Source: a virus (lineage: Duplodnaviria > Caudoviricetes). From it: a DNA stretch of 64,000 bases. The stretch is from the IMG/VR virus record IMGVR_UViG_3300027707_000015, positions 942 through 64,941 of that record; one strand, 5' to 3'. Numbering within the stretch: the first letter of the stretch is position 1; each line of letters starts with the position of its first letter. The notes beneath the pieces are model-generated. The model ran no database searches and was not told where the DNA came from. It saw only the letters and a list, made by a program, of their open reading frames with translations. The position numbers were made by a program, and so were the translations under genes. This document shows, piece after piece, positions 2,883 to 11,246 of the stretch.

Positions 2883-5587
2883 GCTTTGTATAGATTCTTA
2901 TTCAATCCCTTGGTTGCATTAAAGGTTTCGTATGTGTTTATCTGCGTTCCAGCTGCGTGTTGTATCAATAGTGCCATCTTAGTATTTAACTCCGCAAGCA
3001 AGGTTGATGGAGATTCTTGAGATTTTTTATTTTGCTCTTCTTTGGTTTTGGCTTCTGCATCTGCTTTGGTTTTGGCTTCTGCATCTGCTTTGGTTTTGGC
3101 TTCTGCTTCCTGTTTTTTCTTGTCAGCATCGGATACTGCTGCTGCAACTGCGGTATTGGCTTTTTCAGTGGCTGCTGGTTTATCCGGAATCAATGCACTG
3201 CCTTCTCGTGCAGCAAATCCTTTTAATAGATCTTCACTGCTGCCAGTTAAATTTAAACCTGCGCTTTCCTGAGCAGCTTTCTTATCCAATGCATCTTTGG
3301 CTTTTTTGTTGCTGTCTTCTTGTTGTTTGTTAAATCCTGCTTTGGATTTGAGATTTTTTGCATCTAGTCCGGCATGCAGTGCTTCTCGCTTTTCTTCTTT
3401 GGCTGCTGTTTTAGCTGCTGCTGCGGTTTCATCAGCTGCAAGTTTTTTGCCAAGCACAGAGTCTGATTTTGCTGCTTCATTGGTTTTCTTTTCTTCCTGA
3501 ATGTCCTGCAGATTCTGGTCAAAATCTCCTCGCATACCAGGTATCATATTCAGTAACCCAAAAATTCCTTCTTTCAATGACAGCCACAGGCCTTTCATCA
3601 TTAACCCTGTATATTTGAATACATTACCGATATCTGCAGCACTGGTTCCTAGCTGAGTGAAATATCTATACAAAGCAACAACTCCAGCCGATAAGGCAAC
3701 AACTCCAGCTACGAGAGCAATCACCGGCCATGTCGCAGACCACATTGCGGCAGCAACTGCGATCATTGCTGGTATCTGTGCCAACAGTGCTGGCAGCGCC
3801 ATGGCCATCTGAATTCCATAATATATTCCCAATGCCAATGCAAGAGTTGTTAAAATAGGAACCACATTGTTTAACACAAACAAGGTAAGCGTTTGAAATG
3901 CTGGCCACACATAGTCACGAATCAATCCGCCAATCATAGTCAACGCAGGTTCGAAGAAGTTGTACAGATTTTCCCATGCTGCTTGCAGAGCAGGCAGTAG
4001 ATCTATCAATACAAATTCGGCCAGCGACAACAATGCTGGCATCACTGTGTTTTCTAAAAATACTCCAAGATTGGCAAACGCTGGTTCAAGAACATCAAAC
4101 AATATGCCGCCTACGGTGGTTACAACACTTGCCATGATGTTAAATGCTGGTACTAGATATGTCATAACCAGTCCAGCTGTAAATTCAAAAGCTCTCATTA
4201 ACAAATCTAATAATCCGCTGTTGGCTAAGGCTAGTTGGAAACTATTAGAAAACGCTGCCAACGCTTCTTGACTTTTGTTAACATTGGCATTTAATCCGTC
4301 TGTGTTTTTTGCAGCATCGGTTTGAGCTGCTGCTGCATCCTTGGTAGCATCAGTGTTAATTCTCATACCAGCAGCTACATCTGCAGATACAGCAGCCATT
4401 TCAGAACTACTTCTATAGGCTGTTTTATTTCTGTCCATGGTACTCTTGGCTTCTGATTTCATATTATTCAGAGTTTGATTACGTTCCTGGTCTGAAATTT
4501 TAATATTGCTTTGAGTCTGTTGATGCTGCTTTTGCAGTGTTGCATACAATTCAGGATAGGCGGCGGCTAGTTGTCTAGTACTGTCAGTGGTAGCTGATCC
4601 TGAAGATAACACATCTTTAGCAAAATCTTTCAGTCCTTGAGACGGCATTGACTGCACCATGTTTAGCATGGAGTCTGCAACATCTTTGTTTAGTCCCTGC
4701 TGTGCAGCAGCAAATTGTCCGTCTTTGATCAGTCTTTCTCGTTCTTTTTCTTTGTCTGCTCTACTTTCACCTGTGACCTTGGCTAATGCATCCATTTCTT
4801 TGAGATAGTTTTTAGCTCCTTGAGCTAATTCTGCATTGCTTTGTGTGCCTTGGCGGCCTGAGTTTCTTAAATTTTTTGTGTAGTTTGCTAGGCCTGCATT
4901 AATATCTTGCGTAGAATATCCCAAGGCATATAAGTCACTGCCTGTGGCTCGCAGTGCTTTAGATACCTCACCAAATCGTTTAGCACCTGCTTCTACGTTT
5001 GATCCCAACCCCAACATGGCTTCGCCGTTGGCAGCGATCAGACCACCAAACTGCTCCATGGTCATGCCTGCGCTACTGGCAGCAGCACTAAAGGCTGTGA
5101 TACTTCCGCCAAATGTTGCACCTGACTTGGATACTTCGTTGAAGCTTTTTGCCACACTGGTAGCTGCACCTGCTACCGCTGCAAACATAGGACCAACTAT
5201 AGGAATAGATGAAAAAATACCTGCAGCAGCATTTAGATCATTGCCTACATTGGCAAATTGTTTTATAGTATTTGTTACTGCTGAGGACATGCGATCAAGT
5301 CCCCCAACCACTGTGCCTGTGGTGCCGACTAGTGTACCAAATGCTTTGCCTACACCAGAAGCCATTTTGGTCATTATTCCAGGACCGCTGCCACCACCAC
5401 CTCCAGCATTACCACCACCACCGCCTCCAGCATTACCACCACCACCTCCACCAGGACCTGGAGGGCCGGGTCTGCGTGGTCCTCCGCCACTCATTACCGC
5501 GAGAAGTTGCTTCAGCGTTTCCTCTGAAGCGGCATTTTTGGCTTCTACTTGTCCAATTCCTGGAATGTCGATCATTACTGCTGCCAT
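2879..5587 (-). CDS. Tape-measure-like protein (gp29-like)
   Basis: 902 aa, Ala/Gly/Lys-rich helical composition, central hydrophobic segments, adjacent to gp26/gp51-like chaperones. Confidence 0.65.
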   Translation of the reverse strand: MAAVMIDIPGIGQVEAKNAASEETLKQLLAVMSGGGPRRPGPPGPGGGGGGNAGGGGGGNAGGGGGSGPGIMTKMASGVGKAFGTLVGTTGTVVGGLDRMSSAVTNTIKQFANVGNDLNAAAGIFSSIPIVGPMFAAVAGAATSVAKSFNEVSKSGATFGGSITAFSAAASSAGMTMEQFGGLIAANGEAMLGLGSNVEAGAKRFGEVSKALRATGSDLYALGYSTQDINAGLANYTKNLRNSGRQGTQSNAELAQGAKNYLKEMDALAKVTGESRADKEKERERLIKDGQFAAAQQGLNKDVADSMLNMVQSMPSQGLKDFAKDVLSSGSATTDSTRQLAAAYPELYATLQKQHQQTQSNIKISDQERNQTLNNMKSEAKSTMDRNKTAYRSSSEMAAVSADVAAGMRINTDATKDAAAAQTDAAKNTDGLNANVNKSQEALAAFSNSFQLALANSGLLDLLMRAFEFTAGLVMTYLVPAFNIMASVVTTVGGILFDVLEPAFANLGVFLENTVMPALLSLAEFVLIDLLPALQAAWENLYNFFEPALTMIGGLIRDYVWPAFQTLTLFVLNNVVPILTTLALALGIYYGIQMAMALPALLAQIPAMIAVAAAMWSATWPVIALVAGVVALSAGVVALYRYFTQLGTSAADIGNVFKYTGLMMKGLWLSLKEGIFGLLNMIPGMRGDFDQNLQDIQEEKKTNEAAKSDSVLGKKLAADETAAAAKTAAKEEKREALHAGLDAKNLKSKAGFNKQQEDSNKKAKDALDKKAAQESAGLNLTGSSEDLLKGFAAREGSALIPDKPAATEKANTAVAAAVSDADKKKQEAEAKTKADAEAKTKADAEAKTKEEQNKKSQESPSTLLAELNTKMALLIQHAAGTQINTYETFNATKGLNKNLYKA
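3041..3106. repeat. 24-bp tandem repeat (about 2.7 copies) encoding AEAKTKAD
   Basis: tttggttttggcttctgcatctgc at 3041 and 3065, partial copy at 3089. Confidence 0.9.
5391..5453. repeat. Imperfect 21-24-bp repeat encoding GGGGGGNA linkers
   Basis: ccaccaccacc(g)ctccagcatta units in the tape-measure N-terminus. Confidence 0.85.
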
Positions 5588-8332: not shown

Positions 8333-10093
8333 TTATGCAGTCCTTAGTGATTGAGTGAGAAAAGCCACCATATCTTTTTTTTGTTTGATATCAAAAGTGC
8401 TAATTTGTTTTTCTAGTTCGGCCATGTCAACTGGTTTTTCAGCTCCAGCTGATGCGCCTGCCGGTAGTTGCATAGTTGTATATACTTTGTCTACAACTTC
8501 TGTGGCTACACCTTGGGCGACTAAGAATTTTTTCAACTCTTCAGAATCTGTGGGTGACCCTGCTTTTTGCCAGGCTGAGTTGAGTTTGTCAGCAGTGACT
8601 TTGGTTGTTAAATTTCTTGCTTTGGTTTTAAGCCAATCCATGGGACCTTCGGCCAATCTTCCTTCAGTGAGAAGATAGTTGTTGCGTGTGACAATTCTAT
8701 TGAACACAAGATATACTTGACCTTCTGACAATTTTTTCCCAGTGCGTTCAATTGAATTCTTCAATGGTGCGTATTTGGCATTGCCTTGCAGTTCAATAGC
8801 CTGCATTTTGAGGCGTTGTGTGGCATCAAAATAGCCAGTTGTCAGTTGTGCAGCTTTGGCTCCTGTGACTACTTCTCCAGAGTTAAGCGTGAGTTGTGAA
8901 TTAGGACTACCAATATTAGATGTGCCCTTGGGATTGGTTTGATCAACCATTTGTACGGCAGACCTTTCTATCTTGTCAAGATAGCTCATTTCTTGATCAG
9001 TTGGTGCTTGACCGGCGGCTAATTTTGCAGCTAATTTGTTAAGAGTAGGAGAAGACAGGGGATTATCGGTTATGCCTGGATCAGCTTTACCTGTTGAAAA
9101 AGGCCCAGCACCTGGCGGCGCTGATACAGCTTTATTGGGATCGTTGGCTAGATCTGCTAGAGTCTTTGTGTCCATGGACTGGCCTTGAAGGCCTGGAATA
9201 GTCCGTACAGGGTTTCCTGTGGCTCGGTCTATGACAGTTAGCTCGTCCCCCGATCCAGAAAATTCAAACTTGTCTGGAGGATATTCCTTCTGTAGATCAG
9301 CGATCATTTTGTTGTCAGCGTCCATAGCAGTGGTCGCGGCACTGGTATCACCTCCAGGTGGTGCGCCAGTATCTTTAAATGCTCCTGCTACCTTGTCAAC
9401 AGCAGCGCCAGCAATTCCAGCTGCAAATTGACCAATAACAGCGCCAGCTGCACCTGCTAGTGCAGGTTTTATTGCTCCCTTGAATGCTTCTTTCCACGGC
9501 TTGCCTTGCAGCTTGGCTGCTGCAATAGCAACACCGCCTGCAACAAGAGCACCAGTGATAGCCACAGCAGCAGTGCCACCTCCAGGAAAGAAAGTAGCAA
9601 TTAACGGTCCGGCCTTGCTCATTAGACCGCCCAGCACACCACCAACTAGACTAAGCACCACTGCTTGAGCTTGCGGATTTTTCAACGCAGCTTTGACAAT
9701 GGCCATTAGACCTGTTTTGGTTTCAGCTGGTGCTTCTAGATTATTCACAGCGGCTGTGGCTTTGGCTTCAAATTCTGGATCAGGCACAGCTTTTGGATCA
9801 GGTTCAGGCAGTGCTTTTTCTAACTTGCCTAGAAAAGAATCCGGAATAATTTTATCAACAATCTTGCCTAACATGGTGCTGTTGCCACCTCCTGCTGATG
9901 TTTCTTTTTCAGCAGCAGCAAACATCTGATTGATCTGATCTGGAGTTAGTGTTGCTTCATTGAGATATTGTTGCCATGGTTTGAAGAACTCGTTGTCAAT
10001 ACGATCCCAATGCTCATTGAGAGAAGTATCTTTCTTGAGATCCTCACTAAGATAGTATTTGATACTTGTTTTGTCTAAATCATGTAATCGCAT
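8333..10093 (-). CDS. Large putative internal head/ejection protein with hydrophobic Gly-zipper segments
   Basis: 586 aa; starts MRLHDL; hydrophobic stretch AVVLSLVGGVLGG...ALVAGGVAIAAA; several L-x-E sites. Confidence 0.5.
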   Translation of the reverse strand: MRLHDLDKTSIKYYLSEDLKKDTSLNEHWDRIDNEFFKPWQQYLNEATLTPDQINQMFAAAEKETSAGGGNSTMLGKIVDKIIPDSFLGKLEKALPEPDPKAVPDPEFEAKATAAVNNLEAPAETKTGLMAIVKAALKNPQAQAVVLSLVGGVLGGLMSKAGPLIATFFPGGGTAAVAITGALVAGGVAIAAAKLQGKPWKEAFKGAIKPALAGAAGAVIGQFAAGIAGAAVDKVAGAFKDTGAPPGGDTSAATTAMDADNKMIADLQKEYPPDKFEFSGSGDELTVIDRATGNPVRTIPGLQGQSMDTKTLADLANDPNKAVSAPPGAGPFSTGKADPGITDNPLSSPTLNKLAAKLAAGQAPTDQEMSYLDKIERSAVQMVDQTNPKGTSNIGSPNSQLTLNSGEVVTGAKAAQLTTGYFDATQRLKMQAIELQGNAKYAPLKNSIERTGKKLSEGQVYLVFNRIVTRNNYLLTEGRLAEGPMDWLKTKARNLTTKVTADKLNSAWQKAGSPTDSEELKKFLVAQGVATEVVDKVYTTMQLPAGASAGAEKPVDMAELEKQISTFDIKQKKDMVAFLTQSLRTA

Positions 10094-10115: not shown

Positions 10116-10123
10116 TATTTATT
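10116..10123 (-). promoter_or_regulatory. Late promoter AATAAATA
   Basis: Directly after the terminator and upstream of the ATG at 10093. Confidence 0.6.
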
Positions 10124-10145
10124 AAAAACGAGCTTGCGCTCGTTT
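10124..10145 (-). terminator. Intrinsic terminator-like hairpin
   Basis: Minus strand AAACGAGC-GCAA-GCTCGTTT then TT: perfect 8-bp stem, GNRA loop, U-tract. Confidence 0.7.
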
Positions 10146-10581
10146 GCATTTTCGCTTGTCGCTCAATGCGGATTGTCTTCTTTTTTATTGATTTACATTG
10201 TAATTGCGAAGCAATTCAAGTATTATGCAGATTGTTCAGTCACACTTTGCCCAGGCCGGGCAAAGATAACAGCATTATGCGAGTTGCACAGTACACTCTA
10301 GCGTTACAGCGTTACAGAGGCGGTCATCCGGTACCTCGAGCTGCGTCTTTATACGACGGCGGTGTATACATTTACGCTAACAAATGCACACACGTAGGGT
10401 ATTTCTCCCTTCTTTTTGCCTTGTTGTTCTTTTCAAATAACCAAATCGCAGGTCTTAGTAGCGATCGTCATCCTTTCGGGTAGTGGTTAAGCACCTTTGC
10501 GGCAAGGTTTTCCATCCCTGTGTACACGTAGACCAGGTTTAGAGCGCACGAAATTGGGCCTGCGCTAGCCAATAAACCGCT
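10124..10581 (-). ncRNA. Candidate large structured non-coding RNA (unassigned family)
   Basis: The only long ORF-poor gap in the window, packed with hairpins. Several contain G-U pairs that work only on the minus strand (10393-10362, 10270-10239, 10549-10540 with 10300-10291). GAAA/GCAA tetraloops. Ends in a terminator. Confidence 0.65.
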
Positions 10582-11016
10582 TTATTTTGCCTGAGATTGT
10601 TCTAGTAGACGCTGTCTAAGTATGTTTGATCCGCCGACTCTGACATTTATAATACCATTATAATAGTCATCAGTTTCTAAAACTCTGCGTTCAAACTGCT
10701 CTCGAGCTTCTAAATATGATAGTTCTGCCTTGGACTTGCAAAGGTAAATGATTTCTCTTGTGAAATTTTCCGGACCTAATGCTTGGACGTCTGCGTTCAA
10801 CCTATCAGATGAACCATAGTATTCACGCCAATCGCTTTCTACTACACTTCTTCTTTTGAGTTTTTTGCCTTTGAGTGGGGGTTTAGTACGTTTGAATTGT
10901 GCTAATTTCTTGCCTATGTACTTCTGTCCGGTGGTTTTATTCGTGATTATATAAACAAAGCCAATATAGCCTTCTGGTATTTCGTCTATTATTTGATTTT
11001 GAAACGTCCATTGCAC
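10582..11016 (-). CDS. GIY-YIG endonuclease, catalytic domain only (Seg-like)
   Basis: GFVYIITN...KYIGKK, YYGSS and a conserved Glu in YLEAREQF; 144 aa; GTG start. Confidence 0.85.
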   Translation of the reverse strand: MQWTFQNQIIDEIPEGYIGFVYIITNKTTGQKYIGKKLAQFKRTKPPLKGKKLKRRSVVESDWREYYGSSDRLNADVQALGPENFTREIIYLCKSKAELSYLEAREQFERRVLETDDYYNGIINVRVGGSNILRQRLLEQSQAK

Positions 11017-11027
11017 TCTTTAATTAG

Positions 11028-11246
11028 TTAAAGCTTCTTGCCTCTCATGCCTTTTCTGGATGCTTGTTGTATCTTTCGTTTGTCTTGTATTTCTACTCTT
11101 AATATCGATGCCTGTGTGCGTATTTCTGATAGCCATGATCTAGCCTTGATGCCTGCTTCGTTGGATTTTTTGTGATGAAATCGATCCTGCCATTTAAAGT
11201 ATTCTTGAAAGGCATGGATCATGCGATCGTGTGCGTCTGAACTCAC
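11028..11246 (-). CDS. Small basic protein, Hc1/histone-H1-like DNA-binding family (tentative)
   Basis: KKSNEAGIKARSWLSEIRTQASILRVEI resembles the GNKAAGTRARKxxLEL pattern; basic tail. Confidence 0.45.
   Translation of the reverse strand: MSSDAHDRMIHAFQEYFKWQDRFHHKKSNEAGIKARSWLSEIRTQASILRVEIQDKRKIQQASRKGMRGKKL

Follow-up and report, generated by a model that had tools for sequence, protein, structure and literature searches.

A predicted full-length Polynucleobacter-1 RNA with twin variable boxes in a T4-like freshwater phage contig

The Polynucleobacter-1 motif (Rfam RF01718) was reported from freshwater metagenomic sequence and a single Polynucleobacter genome, and it follows genes resembling PSSM2_218 of cyanophage P-SSM2, the GOS11034 family (Weinberg et al. 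2010, PMC2864571). Its 3' half was not always detected, no purified phage carried it, and the same survey left 'riboswitch?' open for the 5' motif. HEARO, the omega-RNA of IscB, was also an orphan of that survey, found beside a small nuclease gene on mobile DNA, and later proved to be a guide. GOLLD and ROOL are large, intricately folded RNAs borne by phages. The bridge RNA of IS110 is a structured mobile-element RNA with two programmable loops, encoded beside a recombinase. Here we analyse a non-coding element of about 455 nucleotides (nt) in a window of 64,000 nt, positions 942 to 64,941 of IMG/VR record IMGVR_UViG_3300027707_000015, an uncultured freshwater virus contig of 64.9 kb estimated to be 17% complete. 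The element fills a gap poor in open reading frames (ORFs), 10124–10581, between a GIY-YIG gene (10582–11016) and a gene for a protein of 586 amino acids (aa; 8333–10093), both on the minus strand. Genes resembling T4 gp46 and gp47 lie upstream of the GIY-YIG gene, so the source phage is T4-like.

The gap appears to encode a member of a known RNA family at about three times its catalogued length. cmscan against Rfam placed Polynucleobacter-1 on the minus strand at 103.2 bits (E 3e-21; gathering score 37), a match that takes in all model positions, 1–141, and covers the first 136 nt of the RNA; the helices of this family covary in 28 aligned sequences. The initial annotation had listed the element as unassigned, a description that no longer holds for its first third. 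Because the remaining two thirds fall in no Rfam family at gathering score, part of the claim to novelty survives, although the feature is less novel than first supposed. The catalogued motif spans 141 nt, whereas by our reading the RNA here and its homologs run to about 450 nt in phages and 600–660 nt in bacteria, adding two domains, three pseudoknots and a pair of short twin boxes. This full-length architecture and the twin boxes are uncatalogued.

Gene context and habitat carry the likeness further. Besides the whole-model match, the locus shares with Polynucleobacter-1 its upstream gene family and its freshwater and Burkholderiales setting. PSSM2_218 encodes a 145-aa protein that by its label belongs to the same mislabelled 'NAD synthetase' family (phrog_447) as the GIY-YIG protein of the window, and tblastn with the window protein matched Prochlorococcus phages. 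With both proteins placed in one family, the window would therefore reproduce the published association of the RNA with a PSSM2_218-like gene. The 'NAD synthetase' label, which this small GIY-YIG family carries in PHROGs and across hundreds of phage entries (736 records matched), looks like a propagated misannotation. Homologs came from IMG/VR, which we searched twice by pattern and then by nhmmer, using a profile built on the whole gap. More than 110 viral T4-like contigs of IMG/VR matched nearly the whole 500-position profile by BLAST and nhmmer, at identities down to about 65%, against none in a purified phage in 2010. A DNA search with the whole gap gave no match among cultured phages.

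Comparative analysis points to a real, knotted RNA structure. Relative to shuffled controls, folding is better on the minus strand of the gap (z -2.65) and not on the plus strand (z -0.50), in line with the large minus-strand RNA that the initial annotation had proposed. Homologous regions covary as well: on alignment A1 of 28 diverse representatives, RNAalifold returned a consensus with 34 covarying pairs, and a mutual-information scan of 80 distinct sequences found long-range pairs that cross hairpins. In a hand-written structure of 107 pairs in 22 helices, counted on A1, 93.9% of cells were paired, against 36–42% when partners were slid by 1–3 columns. Both sides had changed in 51 pairs, against 12–20 in the slid controls; the covariation score was 0.309, against at most 0.07 in controls, and none of 500 shuffles reached the observed values. 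The ACCUU/AAGGU and terminal hairpins stood one column out of register in this count, and their low paired percentages are an artefact; RNAalifold and the mutual-information scan support both.

The predicted fold comprises three domains and three pseudoknots (PK1 to PK3; Table 1). The catalogued 5' motif is followed by a central domain with two of the pseudoknots and then by a tandem-duplicated tail, and long runs of invariant unpaired bases occur in all three. Much of what had been read by eye from the window alone withstood the comparison, including the 12-base-pair (bp) hairpin at 10393–10362 and the small stems ACCUU/AAGGU, CC-GAAA-GG, GAUCGC/GCGAUU, AGGGA/UCCCU, GAGG..CCUC and AAUUGC/GCAAUU. 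A second proposed hairpin, 10270–10239, kept an 8-bp core (10265–10245) and lost its GUUAU/GUGAC extension, which is paired in only 19–71% of cells. At the 3' end, where a GNRA-capped terminator had been suggested, the GCAA-capped hairpin (10126–10145) is supported; a simple terminator scan did not call it a terminator. The proposed overall architecture fared worse. A 10-bp long-range helix (10549–10540 with 10300–10291) has three pairs that are unpaired in 11–17 of the 28 sequences, and its strands belong to P1 and PK1, which are 99–100% paired; in place of the multibranch domain of about 240 nt that this helix was to close, covariation shows the three pseudoknots. A CGUC/GACG stem is weaker than its rival PK3.

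The tail carries two short boxes that change together. From 10297 to about 10200 it is a tandem duplication, each unit being a box module and then a hairpin. The module reads GUGU(A/G)AC, four or five variable bases, NNA, CUC or UCU, and a 7-mer; its AGUGU/AURCU stem around each box is paired and lacks covariation. In the window the two 7-mers are the same word, about 52 nt apart. In all 80 distinct sequences the two 7-mers match each other exactly, although the word takes ten forms overall (GGAUAAU, GCAUAAU, AGAUAAU, AGAUGAG and six rarer ones). With the box columns excluded from a quick tree, parsimony counted 18 word changes on it, a soft figure because many branches are weakly supported; at least nine are required regardless. 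Bacterial versions obey the twin rule with other words (AGCGAAA, AGAGAAA, AUCGAAA, ACCAAAA, GGAGAAA), and two near-identical Polynucleobacter RNAs have three differences in the 120-nt tail, two of which are the same A-to-G change in both boxes. Neighbouring proteins are unlikely to read the boxes, because loci whose DUF6641 proteins are 99% identical differ in their boxes, and three different words accompany GIY-YIG proteins of 90–91% identity. Co-evolution of box letters with GIY-YIG residues could be scored on only three independent pairs on supported branches, too few for statistical power.

Table 1. Features of the RNA and its immediate flanks in the window; structural assignments are predictions
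Feature	Position	Strand	Basis
SegE-like GIY-YIG nuclease gene, 144 aa	10582–11016	minus	PF19835 at 1.2e-36, phrog_447; stop codon abuts the RNA
Full non-coding RNA of about 455 nt; 5' end next to the GIY-YIG stop codon, 3' end at the U-tract of the terminal hairpin	10124–10581	minus	conservation, fold
PK2, 5' strand GCGG	10577–10580	minus	pairs with loop CCGC 10499–10502; 98% paired; GC16/AU8 covariation in one pair
5' domain, Polynucleobacter-1 motif RF01718	10435–10570	minus	cmscan, 103.2 bits
PK2, 3' strand, loop of hairpin ACCUU/AAGGU	10499–10502	minus	mutual information and pair count
Hairpin AGGG-AGAAAUA-CCCU	10396–10410	minus	covariation in 3 of 4 pairs
Central domain resembling cow-rumen-2 (RF02947)	10298–10393	minus	cmscan, 22.2 bits, below gathering score
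12-bp hairpin with conserved loop GUUAGCGU	10362–10393	minus	compensatory changes in 11 of 12 pairs
PK1, 5' strand, loop UUAGCGU	10374–10380	minus	pairs with 10298–10304; 100% paired; three covarying pairs, one CG22/UA6
PK3, 5' strand	10353–10356	minus	pairs with hairpin loop AUGA 10324–10327; covariation CG15/UA13, AU11/GC11
Stem GCAG/CUGC around hairpin GAGGU..GGAUGACC..GCCUC	10307–10344	minus	five covarying pairs
PK1, 3' strand ACGCUAG	10298–10304	minus	mutual information and pair count
Twin box 1, CAA-CUC-GCAUAAU (variable 7-mer 10274–10280)	10274–10286	minus	identity covariation with box 2
Hairpin CUUUGCCC-GGCCU-GGGCAAAG between the twin boxes	10245–10265	minus	three covarying pairs
Twin box 2, CAA-UCU-GCAUAAU (variable 7-mer 10222–10228)	10222–10234	minus	identity covariation with box 1
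Small hairpin AAUUGC-UUC-GCAAUU	10202–10216	minus	covarying pairs
Hairpin with conserved inner sequence GAGCGACAAGCGAAA	10146–10169	minus	four covarying pairs; same sequence in bacterial loci
Terminal GCAA-capped hairpin (10126–10145) and short U-tract, terminator-like	10123–10145	minus	sequence reading, covariation
Late-promoter-like AATAAATA, for the downstream gene	10116–10123	minus	sequence likeness to the T4 late promoter TATAAATA

In phages the RNA accompanies a small nuclease gene. The GIY-YIG gene lies directly upstream in nearly all phage contigs. Its divergence, to identities as low as 41%, parallels that of the RNA, and it keeps the catalytic residues Y22, Y33, E103 and N120, which are invariant across 95 distinct homologs. 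Pfam recognizes only the catalytic domain in the 144-aa protein of the window. A 257-aa ORF stands between gene and RNA in contig L106, the two are 0.8–1 kb apart in L110, L114 and L154, and the genes downstream of the RNA differ between phage loci. Cultured phages with a GIY-YIG homolog (Melnitz, S-SRM01, phiN3, ACP17 and P-SSM2) have no room for the RNA and no Rfam match. The protein has the GIY-YIG domain and conserved active-site residues of a free-standing homing endonuclease of the Seg type; the patchy presence with empty sites among close relatives that marks such genes was not seen, and no RNA-bearing phage locus had an empty site.

The downstream side has a constant signal and changing genes. 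In many homologous loci (for example L002, L003, L014, L031, L034 and L043) an exact TATAAATA, the T4 late promoter consensus, stands at the place of the late-promoter-like element of the window, directly after the terminal hairpin, and it precedes whatever gene follows the RNA. A leader of the downstream gene was rejected, since these genes vary and the hairpin and late-promoter-like element lie between. Group I and II introns gave no Rfam match at E up to 10, and the flanking genes are complete and differ between loci; tmRNA and tRNA gave no Rfam or ARAGORN match. The initial reading by eye had likewise found no match to tmRNA, RNase P, HEARO/omega RNA or group I/II intron cores. GOLLD and ROOL share the phage setting and the intricate fold, but there is no sequence or model match, and the window RNA is smaller, carries twin boxes and has no tRNA neighbourhood by ARAGORN. 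The 586-aa protein belongs to no Pfam or PHROG family; because related contigs keep its gene only at its two ends or lack it, it appears to be a mosaic, fast-changing gene. A 72-aa ORF (11028–11246, minus strand) separates gp46, whose stop codon it overlaps, from the GIY-YIG gene; closer relatives keep this ORF at 61–100% identity, and distant ones lack it.

In bacteria the same RNA sits in small island cassettes. Twenty loci in genomes of Polynucleobacter, Limnohabitans and other Burkholderiales match RF01718 at 74–104 bits and have neither the GIY-YIG gene nor another nuclease neighbour. Here the order of domains is unchanged and the RNA has a terminal hairpin of its own; its neighbours are a divergent DUF6641 gene on one side (17 of 20 loci) and a gene for a 188-aa tyrosine recombinase on the other (10 of 20). 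DUF6641 is unrelated to the GIY-YIG protein by BLASTP, and a protein atlas search returned only DUF6641 clusters. A perfect palindrome of 17 bp, TGTCGTTTAAAACGACA, recurs on the flanks of the cassette in two or more Polynucleobacter loci. Two copies bound the DUF6641, RNA and mini recombinase cassette exactly in L088 (3600–3620 and 6581–6601), and L100 has copies at 1337, 2272, 4307 and 5951; the palindrome is unlike the words of the twin boxes. Between the terminal hairpin and the recombinase gene the Polynucleobacter cassettes hold another conserved stretch free of genes, about 350 nt long (L088, 4850–5073; also L100, L085 and L086).

The central domain resembles a second orphan motif, cow-rumen-2 (RF02947), from rumen phages. 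cmscan placed this model on the central domain with E 0.15, below its gathering score of 66, and, at E up to 5, the model matched none of 16 other loci. Searching with a pattern derived from the Rfam consensus gave 35 contigs of rumen phages with an RNA of the cow-rumen-2 type; one giant contig, IMGVR_UViG_3300028832_000001 (415 kb), carries four copies (L200, L205, L207 and L210). A covariance model of the freshwater central domain only, R1, aligned end to end to the cow-rumen-2 sites at 16–20 bits (E 0.03–0.3), and these were its only matches in 333 kb, in loci whose preselection with the cow-rumen-2 pattern helps the score. The two appear to share their order of elements (UAGC-loop hairpin, GCCGCC, the stem around the GGAUGACC-loop hairpin, GUAA), and the rumen copies, which also sit in T4-like phages, continue into a hairpin downstream of the core flanked by twin words of their own (ACGGAAUA, ACAGAU, GCAGGU and others). 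The rumen RNAs differ in having another 5' domain, their own TTTACA-17-TATAAT promoter and no GIY-YIG neighbour, and PK1 is not evident in them. Common descent of the freshwater central domain and cow-rumen-2 is, from these sequence likenesses, fairly probable, and Polynucleobacter-1 and cow-rumen-2 are probably pieces of one superfamily.

Our preferred reading, held with slightly more belief than doubt, is that the full-length RNA is a self-standing RNA of mobile elements with a twin recognition element that can be re-programmed. In the phage of the window it would probably be co-transcribed with the nuclease gene, because no sigma-70-like promoter was found in front of it and its first helix, with the GCGG strand of PK2, starts two bases after the GIY-YIG stop codon. 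It would act in trans, neither as the leader of a downstream gene nor as an obligate partner of the nuclease. Its conserved core, with the pseudoknots, would serve as a scaffold, and the twin boxes as a re-programmable specificity element read by a two-copy partner or a symmetric dimer. On the simplest view the nuclease gene would be that of a free-standing endonuclease and would have settled next to a conserved RNA gene; a functional tie of the two is possible, because no empty sites occur. The bacterial loci without a GIY-YIG gene, the rumen copies with their own promoter, the intervening ORF in L106, the varied downstream genes and the cultured phages that lack the RNA all argue for a self-standing gene.

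Several points weigh against this reading of a self-standing RNA. Wherever a phage locus extends far enough upstream, a nuclease gene is found no more than about 1 kb before the RNA, a steadiness that accidental neighbourhood explains poorly. In phage contig L038 a non-orthologous PD-(D/E)XK endonuclease gene (PF24608, phrog_244; 4127–4642, plus strand) occupies exactly the place of the GIY-YIG gene. Searches for a complement of the boxes found none within 3 kb at any of 80 loci. The 64-kb window shows neither a palindromic site nor enrichment, and a 2.2-Mb Polynucleobacter genome lacks a complementary 13-mer; the reader of the boxes is not a nearby complementary sequence. The count of box changes depends on the weakly supported tree, and the ends, abundance and strand of the RNA are deduced from sequence.

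An RNA that titrates a protein would also explain paired, fast-changing boxes. In such a decoy or antitoxin-like sponge, the two boxes would each hold one subunit of a protein dimer whose gene lies in the host or on an island, and the boxes would change quickly through an arms race between phages and the island-borne systems of freshwater Burkholderiales. The presence of one RNA family in phages and in bacterial island cassettes of the same habitat fits this idea, as do two identical sites at a spacing that suits a dimer and the lack of a nucleic-acid complement nearby and in the Polynucleobacter genome. We nevertheless consider it unlikely: near-identical DUF6641 or GIY-YIG neighbours do not track the boxes, and the AlphaFold model of DUF6641 (predicted local distance difference test score 80) matches no solved fold. 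The layout is also unlike type III toxin-antitoxin loci with their ToxI RNAs, since there are only two diverged modules and the downstream genes vary or encode a recombinase.

The nuclease neighbour invites comparison with HEARO and IscB. The RNA could scaffold or guide the GIY-YIG protein, which has no DNA-binding domain, through the twin boxes. A nuclease gene is close upstream in all phage loci with enough sequence and abuts the RNA in most, a second nuclease family takes exactly that place in L038, Pfam recognizes in the protein only a catalytic domain, whose catalytic residues are conserved, and the boxes change quickly and look programmable. T4 endonuclease II, however, is also a small GIY-YIG enzyme without a separate DNA-binding domain, and a single RNA would hardly suit nucleases of two unrelated folds. 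An RNA-guided nuclease would have its RNA always encoded with it and a guide with a findable target; the 20 bacterial loci and the rumen loci have no nuclease neighbour, GIY-YIG homologs of cultured phages have no RNA, gene and RNA are pulled apart in L106, L110, L114 and L154, and no target complement was found within 3 kb, in the window or in the 2.2-Mb host-type genome. Unlike HEARO, this RNA has no Rfam match to that family, accompanies another nuclease family, holds two identical internal boxes in place of one terminal guide, and also occurs without any nuclease. Partnership with the adjacent nuclease is thus, in our judgement, decidedly improbable.

Catalysis or sensing would draw on the same conserved core. 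As a ribozyme or ligand-sensing RNA, the element would form an active site or pocket from its invariant unpaired bases and knots, and the boxes would be substrate-like or processing sites. Long invariant unpaired runs in all three domains, the three pseudoknots and the 'riboswitch?' of the 2010 survey (PMC2864571) speak for it. No ribozyme, intron or riboswitch family matched at E up to 10, however, and the varying flanks exclude an intron; we regard this reading as very unlikely.

Programmable pairing is the boldest possibility, and we strongly doubt it. Here the twin boxes would pair, through words of 7–13 nt, with a nucleic-acid sequence, foreign or of the host, that is present in two copies, and would recruit to it an effector, which may be the phage nuclease, the mini tyrosine recombinase of the islands or the knotted core of the RNA itself. 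If true, twin-box programmable recognition would define a new class of mobile-element RNA of which Polynucleobacter-1 and cow-rumen-2 are fragments. The bridge RNA of IS110 is similar in being a structured mobile-element RNA beside a recombinase with two variable elements. Its loops differ from each other and pair with target and donor, whereas the boxes here are identical and no complement was found, and the island enzyme is a tyrosine recombinase rather than a DEDD enzyme. Scarcely credible, finally, is a mere cis-acting 3' untranslated element that stabilizes or regulates the GIY-YIG messenger: the RNA starts 1–3 nt after the stop codon, with its first helix inside the footprint of a terminating ribosome and no sigma-70-like promoter in front, but bacteria and rumen phages carry this RNA as a separate gene behind an upstream region of its own, and 455 nt, three pseudoknots and co-evolving boxes go far beyond the needs of a stabilizer.

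For the window alone, an RNA that had been unassigned is placed in a known family. For that family, an orphan motif catalogued in 2010 gains what would be its true size, its fold and its home, in T4-like freshwater phages and small island cassettes of Burkholderiales, and it is probably tied to a second orphan motif from rumen phages. Its two short boxes, which change often and always together, form a rare evolutionary signature of a pattern that earlier marked programmable RNAs. Because that signature is of the kind seen in programmable RNAs, the full-length Polynucleobacter-1 RNA offers a well-defined target for structural work and for the search for its partner.

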